Below, one piece after another: positions 30,430 to 55,209 of a stretch of 64,000 bases of DNA. Numbering within the stretch: the first letter of the stretch is position 1; each line of letters begins with the position of its first letter. The notes under the pieces were generated by a model. That model did no database searches and was not told the DNA's origin. It worked only from the letters and a program-made list of their open reading frames with translations. The stretch comes from an uncultured virus (IMG/VR IMGVR_UViG_3300020530_000425). Taxonomy: Duplodnaviria; Heunggongvirae; Uroviricota; Caudoviricetes. The position numbers and the translations under genes are program-made. The stretch lies in the IMG/VR virus record IMGVR_UViG_3300020530_000425; one strand, written 5' to 3'.

Positions 30430-33400
30430 CTACTTATTTAATAACTTTTTAATTGATGTTATTTCATTTTTTAATTCAGTAATTTCACCATTTTGTTCTT
30501 TTATTCCTTCAATCAATAAGGCAATTATCTTTTCGTAATCAACTCCTAAATATCCATCACCCTTTTCCTTTACAACTTCTGGTAATACTTCTTGAATTTC
30601 TTGTGCTAAAACTCCTACTTCTTGAACATTTTTTGGTTTGTTAGAAATACCGTTCCAATTAAATGTATATCCTCCAATTTTTTTAATTTTATCCATTGGA
30701 TTTGAAATAGGAATAATATTTTCTTTTAATCTCTTATCGGAACTAGCTAATGCGTAAACATCACCAGTTGCTCTTATATCACCATTTATAGTTAGAACAC
30801 CACTAGATACTGAAAATTCACCAACTGATAAATTTGTTATTGAACCATTGGTTGCACTTAAAGTAGAAAATGTACTTAATCCAGAAAAGTTTGATGAACC
30901 CTTTACGGTTAAAAAATTAGTGGCAGATAAACTTGTATCAACTTTAAATTGATTTGAACCATATAGTGATTGTAATCCTGCTTGGCAAATTTCAACACTT
31001 CTAGGTGCACTACCAACTACGGCATTTACCCCACTAAAATTTGGAGTTTTTAAAGTAATACTTTCACCACCAACTAAATAATTTACTCCAATTTGATGTT
31101 TTATTCTAACATTATATGTTCCACCTGAAGGTATTACTATAGAACCACCTCCAGTAGATGTTATACCTCGTTCATAATTAGGAGCATTATAAAATACATA
31201 ACCCGATGCAATAAGTGCTTCGCCCACTCCCACAACTTCTAAACTTACCCAATGGTAAGTTTGAACATAAGTTGCAGTAGATATTTGCATCCAATATGAA
31301 GTACCTGCCGAATTGGAAATCATTGATGCTATCTCCGCATCTGTTATTGAAACCTCTGTTCCAGCTGCAACAACACCCGTTGATACATTGTTTGAATAGA
31401 ATGTAGTACTTGCTTCAGACTGTAAGTTTTGTCCAAAAATTGCACCATTTCTTACTACTGAATCTGTACCACTAAAATCAGATAAAGCGGATGTAGAACT
31501 TCCTATTCTAAATGAAGTATCATCCGTCATAATTACTGCATTTCTAGAACCATCTTTTATAAAGAATCCTAAATCATTTGAGTTAATTTCTATTGTACCA
31601 GTACTCGTTTTACTTATTTTATCGGTAGAAATTGACCAACCTCCAATTGTAGCACCTAACGCGGATAATTCACTTACTGTTATTTTATCTGCCGTTACAG
31701 AACCAGCTGCAATCTTACCCGCAGTTATGGCATTTGTAGCAATTTTATCTGCAACTATTGCGTTCGCTGCTATTTTATCGGCAATTATTGCATTCGCTGC
31801 TATTTTACCAGAAGTAACTGCATCTGTTGCAATATTTCCCGCTTGTACTGCATTAGCAGCTAATTCTGTATTTGTTACGGTACTTAATGTTGCCAAACCA
31901 CCCAATCCTGTAACTTGTCCAGTTGATACGGTGTTTTGAGTTGCCAAAGTCCCCAATCCTGTAACTTGTCCAGTTGATACGGTGTTTTGAGTTGCAAGGC
32001 CTCCTAATCCTGTAACTTGTCCAGTTGATACGGTGTTTTGAGTTGCAAGGCCTCCCAATCCACTCACCGTTCCAACTGGAACACTACTACCAACAGCTAT
32101 GTTACCAACTATATTTAGAGTAGTTCCATCCCATGTTAATGAATTTGATGCAGATTTTAAAGATAACCTTCCAGTTGTTCCATTACTACCTATAAATGCA
32201 CCAATTTGGTCATATCCTTTCGTTGCTTGTCCAATTGAAATAAACGGAGATGTTGTGCCACCTGCAATTGTAATATTAGCATTACCTGATGAATTTGTTC
32301 CAACATTTATTGTGTTTTGTACAAATGATTCTTTAGATATAAACATTTCAGCAGCTACAAAAAATGAATCTGTTCCGAGTGATTGCCAAAATGTGGTTTG
32401 AGTATCCGGTTGTTTATTTAAATTTGCAGATGCATTTGTTTTTGTAGCATAATAAGTTCCACTATACAACACCACATCTTTACGTGTTGGGTCTTGACTA
32501 ACACTATTGTAAGTTGTAGTAGAATTCCAAGGACCTCTAAACACTACACCTGGCCCGTCTCCCCCAGTCGCTCCGGGTGCACCATCTGCTCCGTTCGTTC
32601 CATTGGTTCCGTTCGTTCCATTGGTTCCATTAGCCCCTGCTGCTCCAGTAGGAACTTTTGTTGCTCTAACAATTATCGTTTGAGTTTGTCCAGTCGTACC
32701 TTCACTATCAGTATGTGTTACTGTTAATGTTACCGATGCTTCTGCTGCATTCATTACCGCAGATGTCATTGTTAATGTTGCACTACTAACAGTTGGTGGA
32801 GTTGAGAATCCTGAAGTAGATGCAATGGTCATAGAAGTAAATCTACTAGTTGTTCCTTCTAATGCACTTATAGTTACATTTGATAAAGTTCCAGTTTGCG
32901 TTCCTGCTGCATTAGCCAATACAGATTGCGCTTGAGGTGAAGCAGAAATTAATACCAATGGAACTGCTTTTTTAACTTTTGATAAACTTAATGTATCGGT
33001 TACAGTTCTACTTGTTCCTTCAGAATCAGTTACAATTGCACTTATATTTACAGTTGTGGAATTTATTCCATCCGCTAAAGTTTGATTACTCAAAGTTACT
33101 ACTCCAGTTGTATTATTTACTGTTAAACTCCCACCAGTATCTACTCTAGTTGCAGTTAATGTTGCTGGTAAAGTGATAGTAGAACCATTGTAAGTTTCTT
33201 TTACAACTATCGTTGAATCTAAAAATGAATCAATTTGTGCACCTGTTGATTTAGCAGTTACACTTTGGTCTTTTGGTGTTGATGATATAGCTAAAACAGG
33301 TGCTGCTTTTTTATTTTTAGTATAAGTTACGTTTTTTATAATAGAAGTTGTATCACCTGCTCCATCCTTATAACTAATTGTTATATCCAATGAACCCGAA

Positions 33401-35691
33401 TCTTGAGTAAGATTTGTAATACTGTATGAGTTTGTTGTTGGATTACTATTATTTCCACCATTTGGAGTACATCCAATTCCACTTAAATTTGTTATAGCAA
33501 ACGTATTATTTGCTCTAATACTATCATTATCATCATCAAATGAAATACTCTCATTACCCACTTTAACAGTCACCGAACCACTTGTCAATATGAATGAACC
33601 ACTTGCTATAAATCCATTTGAAAGTGATGGAAGTGATGCGTTATCATTTGTGAGAGTTGCGGATAATCCATCTAATATTTTTACAGGAGTTATTTTTATT
33701 GCATCAGAAAATTGATTACCAAATTGGTCTGAACCTGAAATGAAGTATGTAGTCTCTCCCGTTCCAAAGGAATAATCAGTTCCAGCTATTGTATAGGTAT
33801 CTACGCCGTTTGTTGAGTTAGTAGATACCAATGTCAATGGTGGTTTACCACTTCCTGAATTTACAGTTAATGGAGTTGTTGCCGATGCTAAATTCTTACG
33901 TTTAGCTTCGATTGTTATTGTTTGACCCGATGGGTTTATTGATAAATCTGTTGCTTTATAAATAAATTGATTTGTATTAGATGTTACAAAAACACCAGGT
34001 GCATTATCACCATCTTCAAATCTGTATACAGTTTCAAATTGTTCTAATCCTTCACACGATGCAGTATATGTAATTGAACCAACTAATACAGATGCTACAC
34101 TACCAGTAAAATTTGCAATAGTTAATGTTGCACCCGCATCACTTACATTTGTTAATGTTCCAGGATAAGTTCCTGCATAGGATGCGGGTACTATATAATT
34201 ACCGCCAATATCAAATGCAGATGATGCGTATGTAACTGAACCTGTTAAATTTGATTTTGAAACTTTAAATCCTAATTGTTGAAATGCAGGATTACCAAAT
34301 GAACCAGTAGAAAATCTAAATGCAGTTCTATCTGAATCAAATGTTAACAATTTAGTGGCTACTCCACTTGTCCCACCCGTAAAATTTGCACTCTGTGTTA
34401 CTGCAACTGGAACAAAATTGTTATTTACATCATAAAATTCAAATTTAAAATTATAAGTTTCATTACCAATGACTGTGGGCATTGTAGTAATAAAGGAGAT
34501 TTCATCAGGTGAAAATGCCGTATCTTCGGAAAGTCTTAAACTTATATTTCCAACATGCCATTCACCTTGCGATTGTGAAAAATATAAAGAACCACTTTGA
34601 AAATCGGAATCTAATTTAAATGGAATAACCGTATCTGATAGATTTTTTGTGGGGGTTATTCCATTTAATGTACCAATTAAAACATCACCACCATCCGAGC
34701 CACTTATGTATATTCCTAAATTACTTGCGGTAGATGATGAGTAAAACGCATCTAAATTTAACTCATACGTGTTTGATGCTTTTATGTCCAACGATTGTGA
34801 GTAAGTTAATAATCCACTTCCGTTTAATTTTAATCCACTTTCAACTCTACTAGATGTTAATTGGGCAGTTAATGAACCAGTATTCCAAAATAAAGGTAAT
34901 ACTTCCGATGTAAATGTTCCAGTATTTCCTATAACACTTCCTGTTAATTGGGTAGTTGTTAATAATTCTTTTGATTCTACTAATATATCTTGTATTAAAT
35001 TAAAATCAGAAATATCTCCTTCAGAAGTTCTGAATACTTTTACTCGTTTTACATCACCTGCAAATGTTTCTAATTGTGAAAGTTTAATTTCTGCAAAAGA
35101 TTGATTTATACCAGAATCAACCTTTGAACCACTTTCTATTCTGTATATTGGGGATAGTATTTCTGTAATAGTAGCAGTTGGTCTACGATAAAAACGAATT
35201 TTAGTAGTATTTGCCAATGTAGGATTTACATTAACACTTCTCTGCCACTTTACATTGTAAGTACCTTGCCAATCAATTGGTATTGGTGTTAATAAACCAT
35301 TACCATCATAGTATGAGCTTAATTCACCTAATATTGTAATTGTACACGGACCATACGCAGTTGTATCTGGATAAACATATACCGCTACAACTTTTGATAC
35401 CCCTTCATAGTATTCACTAATAAACGATTCTCCGTTTATAGATGACGATACTATACCTTCACCAGGTTCATGATATATAGTATTTCCTGCAGCATCTTTA
35501 ATTTCAATTTTAACTAAAGTATCGGCTACTAATTCCTTTGAACCTGCTATTAAAAATGCGTTCTTACCACCAGTAAATGCATCTGGTATTTCTGTTACAT
35601 TGAAGTAGGTACTATTTGGAGCAGTATCTACTACAAATGTATTATACTTATCTAAATTTTCAGCAAAAAGCGTTTTCTTTATTACGGCCAT
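30430..35691 (-). CDS. Large tail-fibre/baseplate-attached protein with collagen-like segment and C-terminal S74-type intramolecular chaperone
   Basis: SSDKRLKENI...GVLAQE...VDYEKIIALLIEGIKE plus coiled coil; GAAGANGTNGTNGTNGTNGADGAPGATG; ADKIAAN repeats; Ser/Thr-rich beta domains. Confidence 0.88.
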   Translation of the reverse strand: MAVIKKTLFAENLDKYNTFVVDTAPNSTYFNVTEIPDAFTGGKNAFLIAGSKELVADTLVKIEIKDAAGNTIYHEPGEGIVSSSINGESFISEYYEGVSKVVAVYVYPDTTAYGPCTITILGELSSYYDGNGLLTPIPIDWQGTYNVKWQRSVNVNPTLANTTKIRFYRRPTATITEILSPIYRIESGSKVDSGINQSFAEIKLSQLETFAGDVKRVKVFRTSEGDISDFNLIQDILVESKELLTTTQLTGSVIGNTGTFTSEVLPLFWNTGSLTAQLTSSRVESGLKLNGSGLLTYSQSLDIKASNTYELNLDAFYSSSTASNLGIYISGSDGGDVLIGTLNGITPTKNLSDTVIPFKLDSDFQSGSLYFSQSQGEWHVGNISLRLSEDTAFSPDEISFITTMPTVIGNETYNFKFEFYDVNNNFVPVAVTQSANFTGGTSGVATKLLTFDSDRTAFRFSTGSFGNPAFQQLGFKVSKSNLTGSVTYASSAFDIGGNYIVPASYAGTYPGTLTNVSDAGATLTIANFTGSVASVLVGSITYTASCEGLEQFETVYRFEDGDNAPGVFVTSNTNQFIYKATDLSINPSGQTITIEAKRKNLASATTPLTVNSGSGKPPLTLVSTNSTNGVDTYTIAGTDYSFGTGETTYFISGSDQFGNQFSDAIKITPVKILDGLSATLTNDNASLPSLSNGFIASGSFILTSGSVTVKVGNESISFDDDNDSIRANNTFAITNLSGIGCTPNGGNNSNPTTNSYSITNLTQDSGSLDITISYKDGAGDTTSIIKNVTYTKNKKAAPVLAISSTPKDQSVTAKSTGAQIDSFLDSTIVVKETYNGSTITLPATLTATRVDTGGSLTVNNTTGVVTLSNQTLADGINSTTVNISAIVTDSEGTSRTVTDTLSLSKVKKAVPLVLISASPQAQSVLANAAGTQTGTLSNVTISALEGTTSRFTSMTIASTSGFSTPPTVSSATLTMTSAVMNAAEASVTLTVTHTDSEGTTGQTQTIIVRATKVPTGAAGANGTNGTNGTNGTNGADGAPGATGGDGPGVVFRGPWNSTTTYNSVSQDPTRKDVVLYSGTYYATKTNASANLNKQPDTQTTFWQSLGTDSFFVAAEMFISKESFVQNTINVGTNSSGNANITIAGGTTSPFISIGQATKGYDQIGAFIGSNGTTGRLSLKSASNSLTWDGTTLNIVGNIAVGSSVPVGTVSGLGGLATQNTVSTGQVTGLGGLATQNTVSTGQVTGLGTLATQNTVSTGQVTGLGGLATLSTVTNTELAANAVQAGNIATDAVTSGKIAANAIIADKIAANAIVADKIATNAITAGKIAAGSVTADKITVSELSALGATIGGWSISTDKISKTSTGTIEINSNDLGFFIKDGSRNAVIMTDDTSFRIGSSTSALSDFSGTDSVVRNGAIFGQNLQSEASTTFYSNNVSTGVVAAGTEVSITDAEIASMISNSAGTSYWMQISTATYVQTYHWVSLEVVGVGEALIASGYVFYNAPNYERGITSTGGGSIVIPSGGTYNVRIKHQIGVNYLVGGESITLKTPNFSGVNAVVGSAPRSVEICQAGLQSLYGSNQFKVDTSLSATNFLTVKGSSNFSGLSTFSTLSATNGSITNLSVGEFSVSSGVLTINGDIRATGDVYALASSDKRLKENIIPISNPMDKIKKIGGYTFNWNGISNKPKNVQEVGVLAQEIQEVLPEVVKEKGDGYLGVDYEKIIALLIEGIKEQNGEITELKNEITSIKKLLNK
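31889..32061 (-). repeat. 51-bp in-frame tandem repeat (~3.4 copies) encoding GLGGLATQNTVSTGQVT
   Basis: The unit beginning aatcc recurs at 31904, 31955, 32006 and 32057; near-identical at DNA level. Confidence 0.95.
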
Positions 35692-41465: not shown

Positions 41466-42632
41466 TTATGTGTCAAATCGTATAATAAAGTTTACAGGAA
41501 TATCTCTTTCCGATTTAATTGGTTGAGGAAGTTTAGCTACCGCAACTAAATCACAATTATCATCGTATAAACCAATTGTTGTGATGAATGGTGTTAAGAA
41601 AGAACCAGTTGAATCGATAGAACTACTTAAATCATAATGTTCAAATCCTGCAAAGTGAGTAGAAGAACTTACAGATGATGTATAACGATAATCCAAAGTA
41701 TTTCCATTTTCTAATATAGATTTTTTACGAATGTACTTAACAGGTTGTTTAGAGTATACTCTATGTGTATTTCCAGAAGAATCTACAAATGATGTATATT
41801 CACCACCTTCCGTTACAACGGCGGATGGGTTTTGTGAAACATTAAATTCATCTTCATTAACAATCAATAGATATTCGTGCTCATAAATTGTTTTGGTGGA
41901 TTTGAATGATAAGTCCCAATTAGATATCAATACATCATTGAGTGCTCGGGTGATTACAATCAACCCTTGGGTATAGAATATATTACCAATTGAATTTGTT
42001 CCTGCTGCGCCTGATAAAAATGGTATATTTTCTACTATCATTACACCACTTTCAATATTAAAACTAACAATATTCATATCATAACTTATACCGTTATATG
42101 TTAGATTAAATATACTGTCTTCTATATCAAACCCCATAAATTGAAAAGAAGCAGTATACGCAGCAGATGCTAAATCTGTAAATATAATTTCATTATCTTG
42201 AATATCTATAGATACTACAGTAATAGTATCTCCCGCAGAATCTATTAAATTTCCAAAGGTATCATCTATATATGTTTTACCATTATCTAATAAATTGATT
42301 GAACCTTTTTTGATTCCTTCTCCAACATATATTTGTGGAATAGATATTACTTTTGCGGAACCACTTAAAAATCTATCTCTACCCGAATTAGAGATTTCGT
42401 ATGTATTATTTTTGGAGCCAAATCTTAAAAATGGGTTATCTTCATTTCCATTATAAAATTGTGCTCTTAATTGACCGTATATAGAATTTTGTGGATATAA
42501 TCCAGATAATGTAGATGAATTTTCATTAGCTTCTAATAAATCTATTTCATTAGAACCACTAGAAAAGTTCCATTCTTTGTAGGCTTTGAAAGGCCTAATA
42601 CTAATATCGGATTTGGGTATTCTTTTTAACAT
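41466..42632 (-). CDS. Putative baseplate/tail structural protein
   Basis: C-terminal PFITTIGLYDD..LVAVAKLPQPIK shared with 42717-43952. Start moved to MLKRIP because the track start lies inside the terminator. Confidence 0.7.
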   Translation of the reverse strand: MLKRIPKSDISIRPFKAYKEWNFSSGSNEIDLLEANENSSTLSGLYPQNSIYGQLRAQFYNGNEDNPFLRFGSKNNTYEISNSGRDRFLSGSAKVISIPQIYVGEGIKKGSINLLDNGKTYIDDTFGNLIDSAGDTITVVSIDIQDNEIIFTDLASAAYTASFQFMGFDIEDSIFNLTYNGISYDMNIVSFNIESGVMIVENIPFLSGAAGTNSIGNIFYTQGLIVITRALNDVLISNWDLSFKSTKTIYEHEYLLIVNEDEFNVSQNPSAVVTEGGEYTSFVDSSGNTHRVYSKQPVKYIRKKSILENGNTLDYRYTSSVSSSTHFAGFEHYDLSSSIDSTGSFLTPFITTIGLYDDNCDLVAVAKLPQPIKSERDIPVNFIIRFDT

Positions 42633-42638
42633 ATCATA

Positions 42639-42646
42639 TATAAATA
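42639..42646 (-). promoter_or_regulatory. Candidate late promoter TATTTATA
   Basis: Between the terminator and ATG 42632. Confidence 0.55.
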
Positions 42647-42655
42647 TAAAGAAAT

Positions 42656-42684
42656 AAAAAACCCCCACCATTTCTGACGGGGGT
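42656..42684 (-). terminator. Rho-independent terminator
   Basis: Minus strand ACCCCCGTCA-GAAA-TGGTGGGGGT then TTTTT; stem with two G-U pairs and a GNRA loop. Confidence 0.85.
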
Positions 42685-42716: not shown

Positions 42717-43952
42717 TTAGAAATCAAGTTTTACTTTTATAGCTACTTCTTTATCAAATGATTTAGCAATTGGTTTAGAAGTTTTAGCTACCGCTAATAA
42801 TTCGTTTGCGTCATTGTACAAACCAACAGTTGTAATATACACATGCGGGTCTCTTTCGAACAACGGTTGTACAAATGCACCTACTGAACCAGTTACGAAT
42901 GTTGGGTTGTTAGAGAAGTTAAATTCTCTATTGTTTGCTCTTACAAAGTAATGCGATGTAGAAACATTTTCAGTTCTACGAGCTTGGAAATCACCACCTC
43001 TTTTTAGTGCATCGTACAATTTCAATGAACCAGATACCGAACCTGATTGATGATATTTTAATGTAGTTGAACCAGCAGCTGCTGATAATTCACCACCAAC
43101 TGATGCTGAAAGTGCAGTTGGGTTTAATAAGATAATACCCATATCAGGATAGAATAAACCATATCCTTGTTGTGTGTAAGTATCTGATACTTGTGCTACT
43201 GATGCAGTTAAGGATGTTCCAATATTCAATGCACCACTAACCATATTATAAACTCTACCAGCAGTTGTTACATTTTCGCCAGTTCCACCTGAATCATCAA
43301 TTAATGAAATATATCCAGCTGAACCTGATAGTGCGATTTGTATATTTCCTGGATCTAATTTTTCTTTATATCTAGCTCTATTAATGTTAAGTACATAGAA
43401 TGATGATAAATCATGTCCTCCTGCGGTTGACCCAGTGTAAACACTAAAATATGCATCAGCTGCATCCAATAATACATTTTTAAATTGATTATAAACTGCA
43501 GTAGTTTGCAAATTGGAATCATCATCTTGAGATAATGTAGGTGCTCCGTTTCCGTTTACATCTCCATACGCGATGGAAAATTGAACCTCTGCAGAAGTTG
43601 ATGAGGTTGCAACATTATATACATCCAAATAATACTTACCACTTACAGAGTTCAACTGTGTAGATGATGTGAAAAAATTAGTCAATGAACCTTCATCACC
43701 ACTCCATATTCCAGAAGTTACAATTTCTGTTCTGTTTGTTACTTTATCAATTGCTCCAAATTTCTTATATATACCATTTGTAATAGTGGTTATATCCGAA
43801 CTAATTTGCTCACCCTGTCCTAAAAATTGGTTTACAATACTAACTAATTCATTTGTATCGATAGGAGTACCTGCTACATTTGATTGTCCTGCCAAGTATT
43901 GAGCTATATTACTTGCTAAAAGGGCTCCTCTATTGTCTCTAATTAATGCCAT
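42717..43952 (-). CDS. Putative baseplate/tail structural protein
   Basis: EFNFSNNPTF, YITTVGLYND..LLAVAKTSKPI; lies in the baseplate cluster. Confidence 0.7.
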   Translation of the reverse strand: MALIRDNRGALLASNIAQYLAGQSNVAGTPIDTNELVSIVNQFLGQGEQISSDITTITNGIYKKFGAIDKVTNRTEIVTSGIWSGDEGSLTNFFTSSTQLNSVSGKYYLDVYNVATSSTSAEVQFSIAYGDVNGNGAPTLSQDDDSNLQTTAVYNQFKNVLLDAADAYFSVYTGSTAGGHDLSSFYVLNINRARYKEKLDPGNIQIALSGSAGYISLIDDSGGTGENVTTAGRVYNMVSGALNIGTSLTASVAQVSDTYTQQGYGLFYPDMGIILLNPTALSASVGGELSAAAGSTTLKYHQSGSVSGSLKLYDALKRGGDFQARRTENVSTSHYFVRANNREFNFSNNPTFVTGSVGAFVQPLFERDPHVYITTVGLYNDANELLAVAKTSKPIAKSFDKEVAIKVKLDF

Positions 43953-44633: not shown

Positions 44634-47600
44634 TTATTCTACTTCCAAAATAGGTTCGGAAGAATCTCTACCAGTTTTATTTACTTTTAATGTATTCGGA
44701 TTAGATATAAATGTTTCAATCGGAGAACTACCATCTAGTGTAGTTGCCGCAGTATTTTTAGAACCCTTAAAGAAACTATTTTGTAATCCCCTAGTTAAAT
44801 CGGAAGTAAATTTATTATGCGTTGGTAAATATCCATTTACATTTGTTACTTCTATTACATTGCCCCCAACTGTTGGACTATTTGGTGCACCGAATGGTTG
44901 AATATTTAATCGTGTTTCAGTATAAGTTTGAATATCCGAAACATATCCACCACGTGGGTCTCCCAATCCGTTTGCAGATGCGGTAATTGCAAATTTTTGT
45001 ATAATTCTTTCTTTTTCTTCCGTAACTAATTGTACTTTAATTCGTTCTTTAACAACTCTATTATCTTTATTAAAATAAGTTCTAATCGCGGAACCGTTTT
45101 GTGCGTATATACCAAACCCAATTGTTTCAAATTCAGTTTGTCCTATAACTTGATTGGAATTTATAATATCAATTTCAGTTACAATTGTAGGGGTTCCTAA
45201 ATCTGCATCTATAGTTATTTCTTTTTGATAATAATCCGAATTAAAAACAAAATTAGAATTCATATCAATAGTAGAATCCTGTTGATAATTTTCAGCCAAT
45301 AAATTATTTACCGATGCAGTTGAAATCAATGCTTCATACTGATTGTTTTCTACCGTTAAATTTTCTGATAAATTGGCATCTATTAATGTTTCTTTTTGAA
45401 TATTTTCAAATGAAATAACACTAGTATCAGATAATTTTATTTCAGTTTCTTTCTGATAATCATCTGCAGTAGGTTTTTTGTGAACAACTTTACTTCTTTC
45501 TAAAAAGTGTGGTTCTATTAATAAACCAGTAGTTGCTTTAACCCTCGCAGGCAACATCTTTTTTAAATCTTCAAACATAGATTTCTCATATAGTTTGATT
45601 AGATTTATGTAAGCATATATATCTCTATTATCAAATCTTTGGAAATAATAATTTCTTAAATTATCCAATGATTTATAATTTGGTTTATAATCATCCGATG
45701 GGTCACCAATGTAGTTATCAATATTTAACCCACCAAAAGTTTTAGCAATATCCATATTCAACTCTTTTGTAGGAGAGAAGAATAAACCAACTCTGTTAGA
45801 ATCAGTTGGAGATTGGTCAAATGCTTTTTTAGTTGCTCTACTTTTTGAAGATAAATCTACACCAACACTTCCAGATATTTTTTGATTAGTTAAAGTATAT
45901 TGGTCTTCGAATCTAACTTTATTAGTTGAAAATCTACTCGCTCCACCATCTGGATAATCCATTACAATTGTTCTATCGATTACTTCAAATTGAAATGGAT
46001 ATTCACTTATAGATGGGAAATTAAATGCCGATGCTGATAATAATGGTGTAGTGTTTACCGAATACAATGAAGCAGTAGTTCCATTTTCATAATCATTTCT
46101 AGTCAATCCATTTTCAAAATAAATGTTAGTATCAACATTTATTAACGAAGATGTTTGTGCTAAATTTTTAGGATATTCAAAATCTAAACGGAAATATAAA
46201 TCATCGGTTGAAGATGAAACACTATTTCCATTAATCATTTCAGGAAATGAAACGTGTTCATAAAATCTTTCAGTATCCAATACTTCAGACCATAAACGGA
46301 ATTCATCCACACTACCAATATAGTTTCCACCCAATCTAATTGTAGAACCATTATTCCAATTTGTATAATTAGAAGATGATATTGATTCTTGGAATATAGT
46401 TCTTTCTTTATCGGCTTGTCTTACATCCAATTTTAATCCAGCAGAACCACTACTTACAGATATACCAAAAAATTTACCATTAAATATTGGTAATGTTGAG
46501 GTTTCTATTGATAGTGACCCACTATAATTAAATTTAACTTTACCATAATCACTATTTGTAGAACCACTTAAATTTACATTCCAGCCACTACCACTTATTA
46601 AAGTATATTGGGATGATTCTAATGGTTTTACAAATAATTCAATCGTATTTGGTTTAAGACTAGAAGTATTATTTGTTTGTTTCCACTCCATCTGTATTGA
46701 TGAAGTTAATGCCATGTTAAGACCCGTAGTAATATTATCTATTACCAACTTACTTTTAGATGTATCGTTTATTTCAGGACCTCCAAATTCTAAAATTGAA
46801 AGATTAGATGATGGAATACCATAACATGCCATCAATGCGTGAATACCTCTCCTAGTACCTTTATGTTTTAGTAGATATGGTAAGTTATTTACAATTCTTC
46901 TCCAAACTTCGTTAGTTCTTTGTTTGGCCGGATTTGATTCTTTATCATTACCTTCTTTATCCTTGCCAAATACATAACTCCACAAATCGGCATCAGCTGC
47001 TAAATTTTTAGCATCCCAACTAAATGATTTTAATGTATCAAAAAGTAATTTGTCAGAAATGCCATCTTTTGCTTTATATCCTAAACCTCTACTTTTTTCA
47101 ATTGATTTTGTATGGAAATAGATATTATCAAAATGATGTCCAATCATTGAGAAGAATAATAATAAACTTTCGTTTTCATCATTATTAACAATGAATTGAG
47201 GTATATTGTTTAATACATAATTTGAATTATTGGCATCATATATATTTGCAAGTTCTTCTATATTATTGTACCAATTTTTAACTTCGTTAGATGTACTCAA
47301 TCTTCGATTAGCACCATTGTAGGGCCAACTTAAAGAAGATGATGTGTATAAGAATTTTTCAAATCCATCAAATCCGTTTATTAATTGATTTTTCTTTAAT
47401 TGTTGTCTTTCTGCTTCTTGTATAGATGGTAACGAACCACTATGTGCCTGTGATGCGTTAGCTGCTGATAGAGCAGTTTCATATAATTCAATTAGTTGTA
47501 TTTTATATACAAAGTTATCAATACGTTCATTTGCAGAACTGAAATGAACAAAATTCTCCCATAAATAAGTAGAACCAGACGAGTATTCGATATTTAATTC

Positions 47601-49610
47601 ATCCGTAGTTATTAACGATGAACTTAAATATAGTGATACTAACTCATTAGAAGATGTGGAACCACTTAATATTATATTATCTAATGATTCGTAATTAGTA
47701 GATTGTCCTTTTACAAAGTCTACATCAATTGTAAAATTTGGTCCTTTTATTGGTGGACAACTTACATCATTATTTTCTGTTAATACAACCGTTTCAATTA
47801 AAGGATTACTCATTAATTTTGTAATCCAGAATGTTGAATTATTCTGTATATTAGCAGGTAATGGTGAATATAGTTTTAATATAATTGAATTAACAACATC
47901 ATTTGGAGCAACAAATGTATTACCTAAATTATCTGTAGACTTTTTAGATAATGTAAAATCATCAGTTTCCCAAGATGAAATTATAATTTGCTCATCGTTT
48001 CCAAAATTAGCAAGGTGTGTTAGATACTTACTTTCTTTTGAAGGTTCATCGATTTTTAATTTTTCAGAAAAAGCATTAAATAAAGCGTTAGTAATTATAT
48101 CTTCATTTAATGAAAGTGTTGGTAGTGTTAATTTTGTCAACACTTCGTATTCATTACCAATTAACTCCTCTGCTCCACTTCGATTATATGGTTTTAGTAT
48201 TAATGTTATATTAGTACTACCAACCCAGTTAGGATAATTTTCTCTTAATTTTTTAAGATTAATTTTTATAGAACCGTTTGGTGGTTGATTACTTAATAAT
48301 CCAATTTTACTACCATCTTTTTGTTTTAACCAAACATCAACTGATGAAACTGCAAAAGAGGAATATGAAACTTCATAATCAATATTATAATCAGAAAACG
48401 ATGGTACATCGATTGATTCTGCATATATGACTTCCGTAATAGCAGGGAAATCATTTATAGCAGTAAATGTTAAAATCACCTCAACTCTAGTTCCTGTTCC
48501 AAATTTTTTACTGGTTGGAACAAAAAATATTTTTTTAGAACCGTAAACCTCATTAAAATCTTTTTGAAAGAATATAGTTACTTCTTTGTCACTAGCTGGA
48601 ATTTCTAAAACTTTATCAGCCGAAAGATATACTAAAACGGAATCTGCGAATTCAGTATTAAATGGAATTACTATACTTTTTTCTGTATCCGAATCTTTTA
48701 CATTAACATTATATTGTATTTGATTTAATACTACTGTAGGTGATTCGGATTTAATTTCTCTTTCAGCTTCAATTACAACACCTAAACCTGAATTTAATAA
48801 TGATGCTGGTACTCTAAATGCATAATTTTGTTTTGTTAACCTATCGTAGTTAACAGAATCTGAACCAAATTGTTGAGCAATTCCAGAATATATGTTTTTG
48901 ATAAAAATACCATCTGGTACATTACCTTTAATTTCAAAGTTAACAAACCCCCCATCTAAAATATTTTTGGGTATTGTAGAAATTCTGTTATCATATAATT
49001 GCAATTCTCCATCTACAACTATATTATCTTCAAATACAATTTGATATTTTAAACTTAAAGTAGTTAATTCCTTTATATTAGAATTAAACAAAACTTCATA
49101 ACCAACCATTGGATTATCAACGGTTACCACGTCTGCAGGTGGTGTTGGAAGTGTTTGAGTTCGTTGTAATACCTCTGTTTTAAATCTTAAAGTTATTGTT
49201 CCGAAATTGAAGTTTTGGGTTTGTTGTTCTTCCCATACATCATCTATTAATGAATATTCTGTAACACCGATTCCCTCAACTATTTCATTCGCAAATTGTA
49301 GTTGTTTAGTATTAATTATAAATTTTGATAATACTTTTCCATTATCTAAATTTGCAGTATAAGTTTTAGGACCATTAAATTGTAAAGATGAATTATATAC
49401 AATATCAACGGATTTACCATATCCAGCAGATACACCTTCTTCAAAAAATTCTAAATCATTAGTTTCACTTACTAAATAAATTTTTAACGAAGATGGTGGG
49501 TTAGTTGGTCTATACGTGGGGGCATTGTAAGGACCAGTTTGACCTGTATTCCTAGTACTTCCGTTATTATTAAAATCCGGATAAGCGTAAAGGCTTTCTT
49601 GTTCTGCCAT
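44634..49610 (-). CDS. Large baseplate wedge protein (gp7/P2 gpI-like core) with LamG-like domain
   Basis: NNLPYLLKHKGTRRGIHALMACYG (KGT motif); GSVDEFRLW; near gp6 and gp25. Confidence 0.7.
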   Translation of the reverse strand: MAEQESLYAYPDFNNNGSTRNTGQTGPYNAPTYRPTNPPSSLKIYLVSETNDLEFFEEGVSAGYGKSVDIVYNSSLQFNGPKTYTANLDNGKVLSKFIINTKQLQFANEIVEGIGVTEYSLIDDVWEEQQTQNFNFGTITLRFKTEVLQRTQTLPTPPADVVTVDNPMVGYEVLFNSNIKELTTLSLKYQIVFEDNIVVDGELQLYDNRISTIPKNILDGGFVNFEIKGNVPDGIFIKNIYSGIAQQFGSDSVNYDRLTKQNYAFRVPASLLNSGLGVVIEAEREIKSESPTVVLNQIQYNVNVKDSDTEKSIVIPFNTEFADSVLVYLSADKVLEIPASDKEVTIFFQKDFNEVYGSKKIFFVPTSKKFGTGTRVEVILTFTAINDFPAITEVIYAESIDVPSFSDYNIDYEVSYSSFAVSSVDVWLKQKDGSKIGLLSNQPPNGSIKINLKKLRENYPNWVGSTNITLILKPYNRSGAEELIGNEYEVLTKLTLPTLSLNEDIITNALFNAFSEKLKIDEPSKESKYLTHLANFGNDEQIIISSWETDDFTLSKKSTDNLGNTFVAPNDVVNSIILKLYSPLPANIQNNSTFWITKLMSNPLIETVVLTENNDVSCPPIKGPNFTIDVDFVKGQSTNYESLDNIILSGSTSSNELVSLYLSSSLITTDELNIEYSSGSTYLWENFVHFSSANERIDNFVYKIQLIELYETALSAANASQAHSGSLPSIQEAERQQLKKNQLINGFDGFEKFLYTSSSLSWPYNGANRRLSTSNEVKNWYNNIEELANIYDANNSNYVLNNIPQFIVNNDENESLLLFFSMIGHHFDNIYFHTKSIEKSRGLGYKAKDGISDKLLFDTLKSFSWDAKNLAADADLWSYVFGKDKEGNDKESNPAKQRTNEVWRRIVNNLPYLLKHKGTRRGIHALMACYGIPSSNLSILEFGGPEINDTSKSKLVIDNITTGLNMALTSSIQMEWKQTNNTSSLKPNTIELFVKPLESSQYTLISGSGWNVNLSGSTNSDYGKVKFNYSGSLSIETSTLPIFNGKFFGISVSSGSAGLKLDVRQADKERTIFQESISSSNYTNWNNGSTIRLGGNYIGSVDEFRLWSEVLDTERFYEHVSFPEMINGNSVSSSTDDLYFRLDFEYPKNLAQTSSLINVDTNIYFENGLTRNDYENGTTASLYSVNTTPLLSASAFNFPSISEYPFQFEVIDRTIVMDYPDGGASRFSTNKVRFEDQYTLTNQKISGSVGVDLSSKSRATKKAFDQSPTDSNRVGLFFSPTKELNMDIAKTFGGLNIDNYIGDPSDDYKPNYKSLDNLRNYYFQRFDNRDIYAYINLIKLYEKSMFEDLKKMLPARVKATTGLLIEPHFLERSKVVHKKPTADDYQKETEIKLSDTSVISFENIQKETLIDANLSENLTVENNQYEALISTASVNNLLAENYQQDSTIDMNSNFVFNSDYYQKEITIDADLGTPTIVTEIDIINSNQVIGQTEFETIGFGIYAQNGSAIRTYFNKDNRVVKERIKVQLVTEEKERIIQKFAITASANGLGDPRGGYVSDIQTYTETRLNIQPFGAPNSPTVGGNVIEVTNVNGYLPTHNKFTSDLTRGLQNSFFKGSKNTAATTLDGSSPIETFISNPNTLKVNKTGRDSSEPILEVE

Positions 49611-50961: not shown

Positions 50962-52113
50962 TTAATATGAACCTGGATTTGCTTTTACAATATTACATGG
51001 ATATTCTTTAAATTCAGTTGTACCATCTTTTTTAGTTGCAATAACTTTTATAGTTCCTTTATATTCCGTTGTATTACCCCATCCCCATGGCCATTTTTCT
51101 TCTGATTCAGCCCTTTTTGGTACTGCGTTTGCATTTATTTTAAAGTCAATAGTTTCATTTCCACCACCAGCTAAATCAAAATTATTCTTCGGCACGGTTA
51201 CCCAATTCCAATTATTGGCTAATTTAAGTTGAAATGTTATATTTACAGGTTGAGTATCGTTGTTTGTTATAGCCAACTGACCACCTGCCTCCCATTTGGT
51301 TGAGTTATAATCCTTCGCATTAATTTTACCAGCCAATCCTTTTGTTATATCGGTTCTAGTTGTTGCACCTGACCACTTAATGATTGTGGTTTTAACTAAA
51401 ATATCACCACCACTTGCTAACGCAGTATTAGATGCCGATTGTTGAATAGCCTGTTGTTGTTGAACTGCGCCTAATTGAGATTGTAAACCTTCTATAATTG
51501 AATTTAATGAATCAATCTGTTTAATCAATGCTTCAATTTGTGCTTTAAATCCTGCGTTTTGAGATTGTAAAGATGCTCTTAAAATAGATTCATCTACTGA
51601 TTTTTGCACTGCAGATTGTATCTGTGTTGCAAATTGCTCAATCACTTTTGATAACGCATCCAGTTGATTAGCCAATACATCATTGGTTTGCTCTATTGAT
51701 AATCGTTTATTAGTTTCAGATAGTACTTTAGATGTTAACGTATTGATTTCAGAATTTAAAACTTCAATATCTGTTGTTAATTTTTCGACTTGTTTTCTTA
51801 AATCTCTATTAGCAACAACCTCATCATCATATAGTGGTTTAGGTACTAAATTAAGGTTTACTTCAGGAATATTTGGCTTTAATTCCTTAACTTCAGTATC
51901 AATTGCTTTTAAAAGTTCAACATTATCTAGTTTGGATATAACTAAAGGTTTAAACACTAAAGATGATGCTACATTATCTTCATTAACTACGGTTACACCA
52001 TATTCATTTTTAGAAACTGCGGCAGAACCTGATACTTTTAGAATATTTTCTAAATCAGTATTTCTTTTTTCTTCCAATTTTAATGCAATTGCTTCTAATG
52101 ATGTTAATGCCAT
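50962..52113 (-). CDS. Hypothetical protein: coiled coil plus C-terminal Ig-like domain
   Basis: Long heptad region followed by a beta-rich domain. Confidence 0.6.
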   Translation of the reverse strand: MALTSLEAIALKLEEKRNTDLENILKVSGSAAVSKNEYGVTVVNEDNVASSLVFKPLVISKLDNVELLKAIDTEVKELKPNIPEVNLNLVPKPLYDDEVVANRDLRKQVEKLTTDIEVLNSEINTLTSKVLSETNKRLSIEQTNDVLANQLDALSKVIEQFATQIQSAVQKSVDESILRASLQSQNAGFKAQIEALIKQIDSLNSIIEGLQSQLGAVQQQQAIQQSASNTALASGGDILVKTTIIKWSGATTRTDITKGLAGKINAKDYNSTKWEAGGQLAITNNDTQPVNITFQLKLANNWNWVTVPKNNFDLAGGGNETIDFKINANAVPKRAESEEKWPWGWGNTTEYKGTIKVIATKKDGTTEFKEYPCNIVKANPGSY

Positions 52114-52115
52114 TA

Positions 52116-53177
52116 TTATACTATTTGAAATGTTAATTTATCATCAATTATAGTAGATATTTCACCATCAATTATTTTTAATTTTAATCTATATGTTCTA
52201 TACAATGGTAGTGTATTTAAATCTAAAATAAAATAATTGGATGTATTATCACATGAAATTTTAGTATATTCTCCAAATGGATATATAACATCATCTGTTA
52301 CATAATCTTCCAATTGATAATATGATGTTGTAGGTAAATATTTTGATTGGTCATATTCAAATGTTGTTGAAAATGACTTTAAAGGAAACATATCTCTACC
52401 TTTAATTCTAATTTTTATCTTACTATCTTTACTATATTCCGTTTTTAAATTGGTAATAATTACTTTATAATCATCTTGAGCAGAACCAGTAACTGGTAAT
52501 AAACTGCCTGTTACAAATGATACATCATTCCAAACTACTTCTAATTTTGGCTCATATATAGTAGTAGTTTCTTTAGAAAAGAATTTCAATACACCATAAT
52601 CTAATGCATTTTCTTCGTTTTCTAATCCATGATGTACAATAAATCCATTATTTGGTATAGAACCACTTAACCAGCTATTAACTATACCTGTCACATTAAT
52701 TCTGATATCAGCATCTTCATAGTTATAAGATTGAGATGCTTGAGATGCAGTATACCACGTTCCCCCTTCCGCGTTTGCAGAACCAGTTGTTCCTGGCGTA
52801 AATACCGCAGTTCCTGCAGTAACATTATCTTGCCAAGTATCAACACCATTTCGGTATTTCCAACTTACACCATCCGATGTAATATTATCAAATTTAGTAC
52901 CCGTTCCCATTGTCCAACTTTGCGAAACTGCGTTCGCGTGTATTGTATATTCTAAAGGAATTTCTTCTGCTTGAGAAGATTTTAGATTTAAATAAACAAT
53001 AGAACCACTTGGGATTCCCATATTAGCTACATCAAATTTTATTAAGGTTCTAGCTATATCTTTAGCGGAACCATAATATAATTTACCAACCTCTAATATC
53101 TCATCTCTACCTGCATTTTGGTCTGGTTGTTGTAAGTAGATACTGGCATCGAACGATGATGTGAATAATTTATGCAT
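52116..53177 (-). CDS. Virion protein with DNRLRE-like domain
   Basis: DASIY..PDQNAG...RTLIKFDV...WLSGSIPNNGFI...PKLEV pattern. Confidence 0.55.
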   Translation of the reverse strand: MHKLFTSSFDASIYLQQPDQNAGRDEILEVGKLYYGSAKDIARTLIKFDVANMGIPSGSIVYLNLKSSQAEEIPLEYTIHANAVSQSWTMGTGTKFDNITSDGVSWKYRNGVDTWQDNVTAGTAVFTPGTTGSANAEGGTWYTASQASQSYNYEDADIRINVTGIVNSWLSGSIPNNGFIVHHGLENEENALDYGVLKFFSKETTTIYEPKLEVVWNDVSFVTGSLLPVTGSAQDDYKVIITNLKTEYSKDSKIKIRIKGRDMFPLKSFSTTFEYDQSKYLPTTSYYQLEDYVTDDVIYPFGEYTKISCDNTSNYFILDLNTLPLYRTYRLKLKIIDGEISTIIDDKLTFQIV

Positions 53178-53178
53178 A

Positions 53179-55209
53179 TTATAAAGCTCTTCCTTTTATA
53201 TCTTTGTTAGGGTATTTTACTTCGAAAATGCAAGGGTCTAAAGATGGATATACTATCTTACCTCGAGTTGCTTCATCGATGTTGTATTTATTTGGTGAAT
53301 AATTTCCATCTCCACCACATAAATTTGATATCTTTACGGATGGTACACTCATTACTCCTTCCACGTTTGCAAGTATTAACTCTAATTCAGAAATGTTTAT
53401 TGGTTTATTAAATGTCCAATTATCAATGTTAAAATAATCTTGCACTTTAACTAAACAATTGGTAACAACTTCTCTTTTATTGTAGTTTGAATAACATATT
53501 ACATCAAAGTCAACACCTATATTTACAACAAATCCATCAATCATATTCACCGCATCTGTAATCATTCGATACTCTCCTAAATATGTTTTTAGGTTCTGTT
53601 TAACTGCCTGATTTATTGGAGTTAAATGTTTATTAACATCATACCCTAAAACATACATATTAATTGCAAATGGGTTATTTACTTCATTTAATGATGATTT
53701 TTTAGTTGAAAGATACTTAATCAATTCACCTTGGATGTCCGATTTACTCATACCTTTAAATCCATCTACTAAATTAGTAAATTCTGCAATAGATGCCGGA
53801 CTAGATAAAATTGAAGCAGGTGAATTATTATCTATCTCTCCATCTTGAGATACATATACTTTCGCAACTGAACCATATCTTTCTGGTAGTGATAATGCCC
53901 TTACTATATAATCCTGTTTAGTTACTGCTCTGTTTTGTGAACCAAATGTTGCTAAAGCATTTTGTCTAATTTCTTCAATAGATTCGGCTCCTCTACCACC
54001 TATTGCAGGTTCTAAATTTTCTACTGCAATCGATGATTTAAATGAATTATACATTCCAACAATTCCAGTTGGTATGGCCAATAAATCATCATCAAATTCA
54101 ATTTTTTGAATTTTCGTTAAATCACCAACATTCACATTTGATGCAATTCCACCACCTGTTAAATATTTTATAGTTAATACTTGTCCAGCAGGAGCTATAC
54201 CAAATGTATTTGTTTTTAAAAAATTGGATGGGTCAATTCCTTGATTTAATCTATTAATAGAATTTGCCAAACCTAATCCTATATTTTTTGTATTAGGTAA
54301 AATTTGCTCATCTCTTAAATTAACATCACCACTACCAAATTGTATTTCGGTTGTATTATCTGAATTAATTTTTACAGAAAATCTACGAGGTACTTTTTGT
54401 ACTTCTAAAATATATGGTACTGAACCAGAATAATATGATAATTCATTCACATTAGGTTGTTCTACAAATATACTTTCTTGAGCCAAATATGGAACTTCGT
54501 AATATTTGTTATTATTAGAATCTGCTATTGATACTATTTGTATAATGTTAGTTTCGGATAATTGGATAGTTGGATAATCCGTATCACTACCCAATGTAAT
54601 ACCAGTAGTATTTTCTCTAGCTGATATGGCTTTAATTTTTTTAGATACTAAATATTGAGTAGGAGTACCTGTTATAGCATCCCTTTCATATACTTCAATT
54701 GTCCTATCAGTTGGGTTTGCAAAATCAATTGCATCAGTTGTTATAAACGATACATTACTATTTGTGGATGATTGTACCTCAAATCCAGCTTTTATTTTAA
54801 AGTAGAATCTAGAATCAGCTTCATAATTTGTACCACTGTTATTTTGTGCATTATACACCGATGGTATTAATTGATAAACGGTTAATGTAGTTATAGCAGG
54901 TGAAGTTACTTTGGGCTTATACCCCATAGATTGTGCCAATGATACCACATTTTTACGTTCCGTAGCGTGTGATAACATTGATTCTTTTAATTGAGTATCT
55001 TGGTAAAATGAAAGAACATCTCCAATTGCTGCAGCTTGTTCAATAAACACCATACCAGGTGATGCTTCATTAAAATCTGAATATGTATTTGGGAAATAGG
55101 TTTTAGTAAAATCTATCAAATTTTGCTTAAACGTAGCAAAATCTTTACCAATGTAATTGATGTTTTTTGTATCACTACCCCAACTTGTATTTGATGGATT
55201 AATTGCCAT
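53179..55209 (-). CDS. Baseplate wedge subunit (T4 gp6/baseplate J-like)
   Basis: DFNEASPGMVFIE..A..GDVLSFY, GGRGAESIEEIR, QNRAVTKQDY. Confidence 0.9.
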   Translation of the reverse strand: MAINPSNTSWGSDTKNINYIGKDFATFKQNLIDFTKTYFPNTYSDFNEASPGMVFIEQAAAIGDVLSFYQDTQLKESMLSHATERKNVVSLAQSMGYKPKVTSPAITTLTVYQLIPSVYNAQNNSGTNYEADSRFYFKIKAGFEVQSSTNSNVSFITTDAIDFANPTDRTIEVYERDAITGTPTQYLVSKKIKAISARENTTGITLGSDTDYPTIQLSETNIIQIVSIADSNNNKYYEVPYLAQESIFVEQPNVNELSYYSGSVPYILEVQKVPRRFSVKINSDNTTEIQFGSGDVNLRDEQILPNTKNIGLGLANSINRLNQGIDPSNFLKTNTFGIAPAGQVLTIKYLTGGGIASNVNVGDLTKIQKIEFDDDLLAIPTGIVGMYNSFKSSIAVENLEPAIGGRGAESIEEIRQNALATFGSQNRAVTKQDYIVRALSLPERYGSVAKVYVSQDGEIDNNSPASILSSPASIAEFTNLVDGFKGMSKSDIQGELIKYLSTKKSSLNEVNNPFAINMYVLGYDVNKHLTPINQAVKQNLKTYLGEYRMITDAVNMIDGFVVNIGVDFDVICYSNYNKREVVTNCLVKVQDYFNIDNWTFNKPINISELELILANVEGVMSVPSVKISNLCGGDGNYSPNKYNIDEATRGKIVYPSLDPCIFEVKYPNKDIKGRAL

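Follow-up and report, generated by a model that had tools for sequence, protein, structure and literature searches.

A protein-level excess of the [ST]-G-S tripeptide on the virions of a family of aquatic T4-like myoviruses: possible acceptor sites for phage-encoded O-glycosylation

Background

Do the fibre and baseplate proteins of an uncultured tailed phage carry a short sequence signal onto which the phage's own enzymes may place sugars? This question is raised by a 64,000-nucleotide stretch of DNA, hereafter the window, which forms part of the IMG/VR virus record IMGVR_UViG_3300020530_000425 (Caudoviricetes; G000, 145,144 bases, estimated to be 77 % complete) and in which the tripeptide Ser/Thr-Gly-Ser ([ST]GS) recurs in virion proteins encoded beside glycan genes. 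The window has a G+C content of approximately 30 %, with all large open reading frames (ORFs) on the minus strand. On the basis of family and profile searches of the ORFs, the range 33391-55209 could be recognised as a T4-like baseplate and fibre module, comprising gp25-like and gp6-like proteins, several proteins without a family match, a 1658-amino acid (aa) wedge-type protein and a 1753-aa fibre of the S74 type. The module is split by replication genes, which encode a fused SbcD-SbcC nuclease, a primase and an endonuclease, and is flanked on its low-coordinate side by a sugar island. Megablast comparison of the module against phages yielded no match. An earlier note, made from the sequence alone, had proposed that [ST]GS is a dispersed modification tag, glycosylated by the neighbouring island in the manner of the Ser-Gly acceptor of animal proteoglycans.

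Excess of [ST]GS in the virion proteins of the window

Pooled over nine virion ORFs, 36 [ST]GS tripeptides were found against 10.2-11.0 expected from local shuffles within sequence windows of 20, 40 and 100 aa, with none of 3000 shuffles reaching 36, and the first-order Markov expectation from dipeptides (~19.6) was also exceeded. Since the motif had been picked after looking at the data, all 8000 tripeptides were ranked. SGS took rank 1 (25 vs 5.07 expected; Poisson p 2e-10, ~2e-6 after Bonferroni correction) and TGS rank 36 (11 vs 4.83; p 0.011), while SGT, TGT, AGS, SGA, NGS, DGS, GGS and SGG occurred at or below expectation in the same ORFs. The words TAS, SAS, SQS and SSS, which had been considered to be related and recurrent, do not rise above chance when 8000 words are tested (8 vs 3.8, marginal; 5 vs 4.0; 4 vs 2.2; and 8 vs 6.8, respectively). 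The sites are distributed over the following proteins, all encoded on the minus strand (observed vs expected counts in brackets):

30430..35691, minus strand: tail fibre, 1753 aa, with a C-terminal Peptidase_S74 chaperone (PF13884 at aa 1651-1708); 13 sites at aa 187, 250, 271, 330, 366, 462, 483, 529, 612, 652, 697, 704 and 765, none in aa 771-1753
41466..42671, minus strand: 401-aa virion protein, with a C-terminal part common to fibre/baseplate paralogues and homology to module ORFs of relatives; 3 sites at aa 38, 103 and 355 (3 vs 0.58, p 0.017)
42717..43952, minus strand: 411-aa virion protein (p411) of a paralogous family; 5 sites at aa 173, 209, 303, 307 and 354 (5 vs 0.80, p 0.0015)
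44634..49610, minus strand: baseplate wedge-type protein, 1658 aa; 8 sites at aa 649, 678, 724, 1006, 1015, 1030, 1054 and 1246 (8 vs 1.75, 0/2000 shuffles)
50962..52113, minus strand: coiled-coil-like baseplate protein, 383 aa, with weak coiled-coil Pfam matches; 1 site at aa 28 (1 vs 0.20, p 0.19)
52116..53177, minus strand: baseplate protein p353, 353 aa, downstream of gp6; 5 sites at aa 57, 131, 171, 223 and 230 (5 vs 0.41, 0/2000 shuffles)
53179..55209, minus strand: gp6-like baseplate wedge protein, 676 aa, used as anchor for finding relatives; 1 site at aa 261 (p 0.44)

All seven SGS/TGS counts of the earlier note were reproduced exactly, as was the count of zero in SbcCD (36678-39836), and the observation is thus confirmed. 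The use of SbcCD as a control does not stand, as a mere 0.41 sites are expected there and its zero is uninformative, and the single sites of gp6 and of the 50962-52113 protein, correctly counted, do not amount to enrichment of either protein. The contrast drawn between the two parts of the fibre is upheld, with 13 sites vs 1.94 expected in aa 1-770 and 0 vs 3.24 in the C-terminal 983 aa (p 0.04). PHROG fibre families match aa 642-1753 only, mostly past aa 948, and tblastn of the fibre against phages matched the C-terminal domain alone. Hydrophobic residues make up 0.64, 0.58 and 0.72 of those found at -2, -1 and +1 of the tripeptide, compared with 0.39 in the background; V, L, A, F and I are the commonest. 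The flanks of the 36 sites do not resemble one another (flank similarity -15.83 vs -16.39 in the control, standard deviation (sd) 0.66), and the sites in this range are therefore truly dispersed, as had been claimed.

Spread across the phage family and turnover of sites

By gp6, at ~40 % identity, the closest cultured relatives are Microcystis phage Mel-JY01 and the immuto phages of Flavobacterium, together with an uncultured 484-kb phage (LR756508). The syntenic modules of Mel-JY01 (45 vs 6.7; 6.7-fold) and immuto (62 vs 14.2; 4.4-fold) share the excess, with little enrichment in that of LR756508 (6 vs 3.2). Among 213 loci with a gp6 ORF in IMG/VR and the reference loci, 81 had ORFs totalling 1,500 residues or more on the downstream side of gp6, and all 81 of these baseplate modules showed ratios of 2.1-8.4, mostly 4-8. 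The genome-wide excess is confined to between nine and twelve ORFs per genome, with the remaining ORFs at 1.2-1.35-fold and the whole proteome of LR756508 at 1.44. For example, in G001, a 100 % complete genome (201,940 bases; 208 ORFs) with 95 % gp6 identity to the window phage, twelve ORFs contain 131 sites vs 26.6 expected and the other 196 ORFs 45 vs 33.5; Mel-JY01 and immuto are alike in this respect. In a FastTree phylogeny of 69 distinct gp6 sequences, which carries long-branch warnings and was used for trait clustering only, the trait was clustered, with two separate groups of low density, namely LR756508 with two near-copies, and a clade around the loci L344, L321 and L325. Eleven S/T/G-rich fibre proteins of the cyanophages ACG-2014f and S-CAM9 and the T-even phage RB18 gave ratios of 0-2.2, none with p<0.05. 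As these fibres lack it, the excess is a property of this phage family rather than of fibres in general. A literature search, with subscription journals largely outside its reach, returned neither an SGS motif in phage fibres nor glycosylated virions in this family.

At ~40 % identity most sites are not common to orthologues, yet the density remains at 4-7-fold. None of the eight wedge sites is shared with Mel-JY01, immuto or LR756508, and within the clade of the window phage, 3-5 of 7-8 aligned wedge sites are kept and 4-10 are new. Some sites are more widely shared. The site at aa 354 of p411 (alignment column 450) is common to two of four aligned relatives, and the TGS at aa 223 of p353 to Mel-JY01 and immuto (3/4 sequences); columns 147 and 270 of p411 hold a conserved [ST]GS in relatives, including the motif-poor LR756508, where the window has NGA or SGA. 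In a comparison of nine mutually related loci (of ten at 72-76 % gp6 identity; L067 was left out), 68/134 site comparisons keep [ST]GS, 66 have lost it and 76 sites are new, with ordinary tripeptides at 31 % identity. The density is thus kept while the positions of the sites move.

The non-fibrous capsid protein also contains sites, with four vs 0.62 expected in both G000 and G001 and three in the clade genome G003. These sites, at aa 67, 123, 191 and 228 of the 538-aa protein, all fall in its variable, gapped N-terminal third and avoid the core that aligns with T4 gp23. The capsid proteins of Mel-JY01, immuto and LR756508 have one site each, and the extra sites are confined to the clade that bears the GT7 glycosyltransferases described below. 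A further ORF of Mel-JY01 (locus L166, 635-3052, plus strand; 805 aa) has a strong collagen-repeat match (1e-53) where the record annotates a minus-strand coding sequence (739-2298), and the annotated strand may be wrong.

Protein-level nature of the excess

The 36 sites of the window are spelled by 22 different 9-mers, and the common 9-mers do not recur out of frame. AGT, used at the first serine, is the general serine codon before glycine (20/39 and 20/42 non-motif [ST]G contexts), and glycine within the motif is skewed towards GGT, where GGA followed by TCN would spell GATC, a tetramer found twice in the 145-kb G000 against ~489 occurrences expected under a Markov model. Codon context and GATC avoidance thus account for the skew, which is not seen at the motif in immuto. 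With a DNA-level cause ruled out by these results, the excess acts at the level of the protein. Three other palindromes are also depleted in G000, namely CATG (161 vs 454), CTAG (136 vs 292) and GTAC (289 vs 465), which suggests strong restriction-site avoidance.

That the motif was chosen after inspection, in S/T/G-rich proteins and with skewed codons, could raise the suspicion of an artefact of composition, post-hoc choice or DNA-level signal. The probability of this is considered negligible, given that the rank of SGS survives correction over 8000 words, that the counts exceed the local shuffles as well as the Markov expectation, that the codon skew is explained, and that the excess is replicated in 81 modules of independent sequence and in the 120 listed fibre homologues below.

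Periodic repeats in fibres outside of the window

Across the whole G000 contig, 168 [ST]GS were counted vs 50 expected in 128 ORFs. The densest stretch of all, located outside of the window between the capsid and sheath genes, encodes seven fibre-type proteins with 15, 17, 8, 11, 24, 10 and 16 sites (101 vs ~19 expected), of which two also end in a Peptidase_S74 chaperone. Here, the motif occurs every 14, 21 or 28 residues inside longer conserved units, and runs with a spacing of six residues are found (e.g. TGS-NTF-SGS-QIF-SGS). Of the 3,140 homologues of one of these fibres with E<=1e-5, the 120 listed show the repeat consensus G-[VI]-[VI]-S-G-S-S-Q-[IV] and an excess of between 3.4- and 8.3-fold in every one, with SGS at 8.6-fold, TGS at 3.0-fold, SGT at 0.86-fold and SGG at 0.08-fold. 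One copy, S327-G328-S329-Q331, is invariant in 32 aligned sequences with a mean column identity of 32 %. The flank score of the seven fibres (-7.82 vs -10.58 in the control, sd 0.52) places the motif in register with homologous repeats.

PDB sequence searches with the fibres matched the chaperone domain alone, with no solved structure covering the repeat region, and an AlphaFold2 model of a 513-aa fibre as a single chain, built with 32 of the 120 listed homologues, reached a predicted local distance difference test (pLDDT) score of 44.9 and was useless. For p353, which has 1,918 homologues, the model was built from 29 of 120 listed homologues, all 76-100 % identical, and at low confidence (pLDDT 53.9) has two sites at strand/helix boundaries and three in coil with pLDDT <50. 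A weak PDB match of p353 aa 54-96 (E 0.067) to framework 3 of antibody light chains, itself containing S-G-S, may hint at an Ig-like sandwich or be due to chance.

These periodic arrays lend weight to a purely structural role, in which [ST]GS would be a preferred tight turn or corner of beta-rich trimeric folds, inherited and re-invented but unmodified, with the glycosyltransferases serving something else. This is a serious contender, with prospects somewhat below even. Apart from the invariant copy, the six-residue runs and the flank homology of the seven fibres, it would explain the hydrophobic residues on both sides of the motif, the few sites conserved even in LR756508, the strand/helix boundary position of two p353 sites in the low-confidence model, and a trait that follows the phylogeny, with some excess left in LR756508 and a single contrast for the enzyme pair discussed below. 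A preference for turns does not readily explain why the other turn-formers (NG, DG, GN, GD and GG) and SGT are not enriched, why the window's sites have no flank homology, why one site in two is lost and replaced among members of a clade, or why no excess is seen in fibres of other phages that are just as rich in S, T and G, while a non-fibrous capsid protein gains sites in variable loops and the last 983 aa of the window's fibre remain site-free.

The GT7 island

Three paralogous glycosyltransferases (GTs) of the GT7 family, beta-4-galactosyltransferase-like, are encoded at 18759..23469, a distance of 7-11 kb from the fibre gene; an ORF of 113 aa separates the second gene from the third:

18759..20225, minus strand: GT7 enzyme fused to a concanavalin-A-like lectin domain (PF13733, PF02709, PF13385)
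20227..21657, minus strand: second GT7-lectin fusion with the same domains
22012..23469, minus strand: third GT7-lectin fusion with the same domains

The sugar island further includes three radical-SAM enzymes, three SDR epimerase/dehydratases, an RmlC-like epimerase, a thiamine pyrophosphate (TPP)-dependent, E1-like enzyme and methyltransferases. The sugar-tailoring set is unusually rich (5564-28311 and 58895-60595, both minus strand), with also a HAD phosphatase and, further on, a NodU/CmcH-type carbamoyltransferase; no nucleotidyltransferase was recognised in it by profile searches. The PF13385 lectin domain of the fusions recurs in a 575-aa protein encoded beside the tail sheath gene (L003:8941-10668; G000 117241-118968).

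GT7 is present in all six searchable genomes of the clade (G000-G004 and G007), absent from Mel-JY01, immuto, LR756508 and G038 (G042, a further lineage, was not searched for GT7), and tblastn of one fusion against phages gave no match. No GT is common to the window's island and those of Mel-JY01 and immuto. The presence of the motif does not track the window's GT island across the relatives, with the 6.7-fold and 4.4-fold excesses of Mel-JY01 and immuto occurring in phages without GT7, which removes the ground for the proposal that the neighbouring GT7 island serves the motif. The motif predates the island, which thus cannot be its reader, and the GT7 enzymes would be lineage-specific elaborating enzymes at most.

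In animals, B4GALT7 extends a xylose already present on serine and does not read the Ser-Gly sequon, for which acidic flanks are characteristic, and GT7 enzymes in general act on sugars rather than on the peptide. The GT14 initiating xylosyltransferase (Branch, PF02485) was found in none of five genomes at E<=0.01 (G000, G001, G007, Mel-JY01 and immuto), the flanks of [ST]GS are hydrophobic instead of acidic, and the GT7 domains match B4GALT1 (5.6e-32) and B4GALT7 (7.9e-31) in the PDB equally well. Along with the restriction of GT7 to one clade, these results lead to the failure of the proteoglycan analogy. The version in which a proteoglycan-type S-G sequon is glycosylated by the window's B4GALT7-like enzymes can draw on the proximity of the fusions to the fibre gene, on their retention throughout the clade and on the extra capsid sites in GT7-bearing genomes alone. 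It is nevertheless very unlikely, given the lack of GT14, the non-acidic flanks, the tie between the two galactosyltransferases, the preference of GT7 enzymes for sugars, and the equal or higher motif density of relatives such as Mel-JY01, immuto and those of the G042 type, the first two of which have no GT7.

A conserved GT-B/GT-A pair

Four of the 208 ORFs of G001 are common to Mel-JY01 and immuto and absent from LR756508. Two of these are adjacent GTs, a GT-B of 422 aa and a GT2 (GT-A) of 208 aa, and the others are a 277-aa chitinase-like protein and a 134-aa baseplate-module protein. The chance of finding two GTs among four is approximately 0.008 (8 GT-like ORFs in 208; hand arithmetic), with five GT-like ORFs in G001 beyond the GT7 fusions. 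The pair is encoded in a second glycan island:

L220 (G001:32001-50000): second glycan island of G001, with a GT4-like protein (PF20706 'conflict system' match), a 422-aa GT-B, two GT2s, a Glyco_trans_1_2 protein, an epimerase, two methyltransferases and a 2-oxoglutarate (2OG) oxygenase

The order of genes is DNA polymerase, clamp loader, PD-(D/E)XK nuclease, GT4-like (460 aa), GT-B (422 aa), two small ORFs, GT2 (208 aa), more transferases, epimerase and methyltransferases, and the island is syntenic with those after the same nuclease in immuto and Mel-JY01. The GT4-like gene is a single ORF in G001 and immuto (480 aa), and two ORFs (190 and 302 aa) in Mel-JY01 (83441-84932). LR756508 has both the nuclease and a GT4-like gene, the latter at 31 % identity, without the pair. 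In a fourth lineage, G042 (100 % complete, 181,588 bases; gp6 42 % identical, ratio 6.4), the pair is present at 51-52 % identity, which exceeds that of gp6. Among 50,697 cultured phage records, the GT-B is found in Mel-JY01 and four immuto records only. The pair is thus present in 4/4 complete motif-rich genomes and absent from the one complete motif-poor genome. The positions of the gp6, GT7 and capsid genes in G000 and G001 sum to ~207 kb each, and this synteny with a complete genome of 95 % identity would place the island of the window phage past the end of the G000 contig.

The GT-B falls in virus-only clusters of GT4/RfaG-like proteins and had no match in a PDB sequence search, while the best solved relatives of the 208-aa GT2 are a glycosyltransferase (5e-5) and GmaR (1.8e-4), a flagellin O-linked N-acetylglucosamine transferase, which offers a weak lead only. 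A case-control comparison of GT2 on motif-rich and motif-poor contigs with S74 fibres (36 contigs of ~19 kb or more, from 71 loci; L123 was left out) was set aside, as all but one of the motif-rich contigs are 10-34 % fragments and absence from them is uninformative.

With regard to the substrate of the pair, known routes to hydroxy-pyrimidines need a ThyA-family enzyme, and none was found in G001 or Mel-JY01. Phage GT islands are known for DNA glycosylation (PMC13326640; PMC12619734), and the first of these papers, on glycosylated 5-hydroxycytosine, does not mention this phage lineage in its abstract or under the terms searched. The virion DNA of immuto, as analysed by liquid chromatography with UV detection and tandem mass spectrometry (LC-UV-MS/MS), is reported to consist of dA, dC, dT and a single new nucleoside, fdPreQ1, which replaces dG, and the term 'glycosyl' is not used in the main text of that paper (PMC10516641). 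The immuto DNA data and the missing ThyA count against DNA as the substrate. Remodelling of the host envelope fits poorly, as phages infecting a cyanobacterium and a flavobacterium have retained the core pair at ~50 % identity, and the placement of the hosts of the cultured members in different phyla favours a phage-intrinsic substrate.

Other modification enzymes and neighbouring genes

A 2OG-Fe(II) oxygenase gene (35965-36678, minus strand) abuts the fibre gene of the window, a prolyl 4-hydroxylase is annotated near the Mel-JY01 module, and four 2OG oxygenases are encoded beside the fibres of S-CAM9; these fibre-adjacent oxygenases may point to hydroxylation of fibre proteins. The next ORF (36678-39836, minus strand) combines an SbcD-like nuclease part (aa 5-337) and an SbcC-like ATPase part (aa 324-1051) in a single 1052-aa protein, parts which T4 encodes separately as gp47 and gp46.

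The tripeptide could also be a non-sugar tag. It might, for example, be bound by a decoration protein or an assembly chaperone, or its serine might be modified otherwise, by phosphorylation or by radical-SAM or 2OG-oxygenase chemistry. Such a tag would leave the same signs of selection on motif density, and the oxygenase next to the fibre gene, another at the end of the G001 island and the three radical-SAM enzymes of the window could supply the chemistry, while the chitinase-like and baseplate-module ORFs show that half of the ORFs sharing the distribution of the motif are not GTs. It is nonetheless judged to be improbable, with no test here tying such an enzyme or partner to the motif and the oxygenase and radical-SAM genes not profiled across the family.

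Proposed role of the tripeptide

The excess of [ST]GS, its specificity, its spread across the family, the turnover of sites while density is maintained and the shared distribution of motif and GT pair are observations, from which we infer an attached sugar, a residue that carries it and an enzyme that writes it. In this reading, [ST]GS would be a short motif under protein-level selection on the fibres, peripheral baseplate proteins and variable capsid loops throughout a large aquatic family of T4-like myoviruses. The tripeptide would make a tight turn between two beta-strands, with its serine serving as the acceptor for O-glycosylation, and the modification would occur in the host cytoplasm through soluble, phage-encoded GTs. 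The best candidates for priming are the family-conserved, virus-only GT-B (~422 aa) and GT-A (~208 aa) encoded beside the PD-(D/E)XK nuclease, and lineage-specific islands, such as that of the window with its three GT7-lectin enzymes and sugar-tailoring genes, may build different glycans on the same primer. An acceptor role is favoured by the specificity for S-G-S, the restriction to the outer virion, the dispersal and turnover of the sites, the specificity for the family, the motif-free fibre tip and the GT pair, and is put forward as a tentative first choice, with somewhat less than an even chance of being correct. The general idea of the earlier note, that of a dispersed tag read by phage GTs, accordingly survives and is strengthened by the dispersal of the sites, their turnover at kept density, the family specificity and the co-distribution of the GT-B/GT-A pair; the GT7/B4GALT7 mechanism is not supported. 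The extension to a family-wide 'glyco-code', where the pair would prime [ST]GS O-glycans across host phyla, the islands would diversify the glycan and the receptor-binding fibre tip would be kept free of sites, is more speculative and is regarded as rather unlikely as a whole.

Several points weigh against the acceptor role. We know of no glycosyltransferase that reads S-G-S. The hydrophobic flanks are what would be expected of a strand-turn-strand element rather than of a flexible, exposed loop, the models, with pLDDT values of 53.9 and 44.9, are too weak to support exposure of the sites, and the fibres outside of the window look like classical structural repeats. The pair is located in a replication module, next to the DNA polymerase and clamp loader, and is not found on G000 or four other partial contigs, an absence made uninformative by the synteny that places the island beyond the contig end. 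LR756508, which lacks the pair, still shows ~2.1-fold enrichment in its module and 3 sites vs 0.34 in one protein. The co-distribution of pair and motif amounts to one phylogenetic contrast, provided by LR756508, and is not proof; the second low-density clade consists of fragments and yields no usable second contrast. As the trait clusters on the gp6 tree, shared ancestry could also produce the co-distribution. The acceptor and structural readings are thus nearly level. They are not mutually exclusive, and are compatible in that a serine in a strand-turn-strand element is what the adhesin heptosyltransferases considered below use.

To our knowledge, mycobacteriophages are so far the only phages for which self-glycosylation of the particle has been demonstrated, and no rule for the choice of acceptor sites is known. 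Should [ST]GS prove to be such a rule, the sites could be predicted directly from the sequences of thousands of uncultured aquatic phages, and a substrate could be assigned to a conserved enzyme pair. It would further suggest that phages in nature bear a sugar coat, with consequences for adsorption, grazing, aggregation and stability. If it is purely structural, the motif still defines an undescribed and very abundant family of fibre repeats without a solved structure. Since two members, Mel-JY01 on Microcystis and the immuto phages on Flavobacterium, are available in culture, the question lends itself to direct testing.

Comparison with known systems

Proteoglycan linker synthesis, where XYLT of GT14 acts before B4GALT7, resembles the phage system in its Ser-Gly-containing acceptor and its GT7 catalytic domains, and differs in that the phages lack GT14, the flanks of their motif are hydrophobic and the motif does not track GT7. 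In trimeric viral fibre shafts (triple beta-spiral, beta-helix and T4 fibre repeats), short glycine-containing motifs occur at fixed periods. The seven periodic fibres outside of the window, and the S74 chaperone of two of these and of the window's fibre, conform to this pattern; unlike such repeats, the tripeptide also occurs free of repeats in baseplate and capsid proteins, turns over between orthologues, and is not in excess in the T-even and cyanophage fibres tested.

The TibC/AAH enzymes, soluble and cytoplasmic, O-glycosylate (heptosylate) serines in short inter-strand turns of beta-helical surface proteins, namely TibA and AIDA-I. The hydrophobic-[ST]GS-hydrophobic context and the repeat arrays are reminiscent of these acceptors, within the limits of low-confidence structure models, while the conserved phage pair is GT4-like and GT2-like and the acceptors would be virion proteins rather than adhesins. 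Matches to PF01075 (GT9) and PF21129 (the TibC N-domain, below cut-off) were found in Mel-JY01 only (1/8 genomes) and not in G000, G001 or G042, which rules out TibC/GT9 as a family-wide writer. In Mel-JY01 (4750-8430; loci L166/L370), a 1,227-aa protein combines GT4-type, annotated FkbM methyltransferase, above-cut-off GT9 and sub-threshold TibC N-domain regions and adjoins a motif-rich 'structural protein' (13 vs 2.5). This architecture, which is that of the enzymes that heptosylate serines of beta-helical adhesins in the cytoplasm, makes it a candidate protein glycosyltransferase.

The virions of mycobacteriophages are O-glycosylated by phage-encoded glycosyltransferases (Freeman et al. 2023, as cited in PMC10877033 and PMC12619734), with the glycans described in PMC12619734 located at the C-termini of capsid and tail-tube subunits. 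In the present family the tripeptide is instead dispersed over fibres, baseplate and the N-terminal third of the capsid protein, and the enzymes are a virus-only GT-B/GT-A pair and GT7-lectin fusions. Both systems have in common that the GTs are encoded in the phage genome (here three GT7 fusions, with five more GT-like ORFs in G001) and that their targets would be structural proteins of the phage itself, modified in the cytoplasm prior to assembly or in the course of it.

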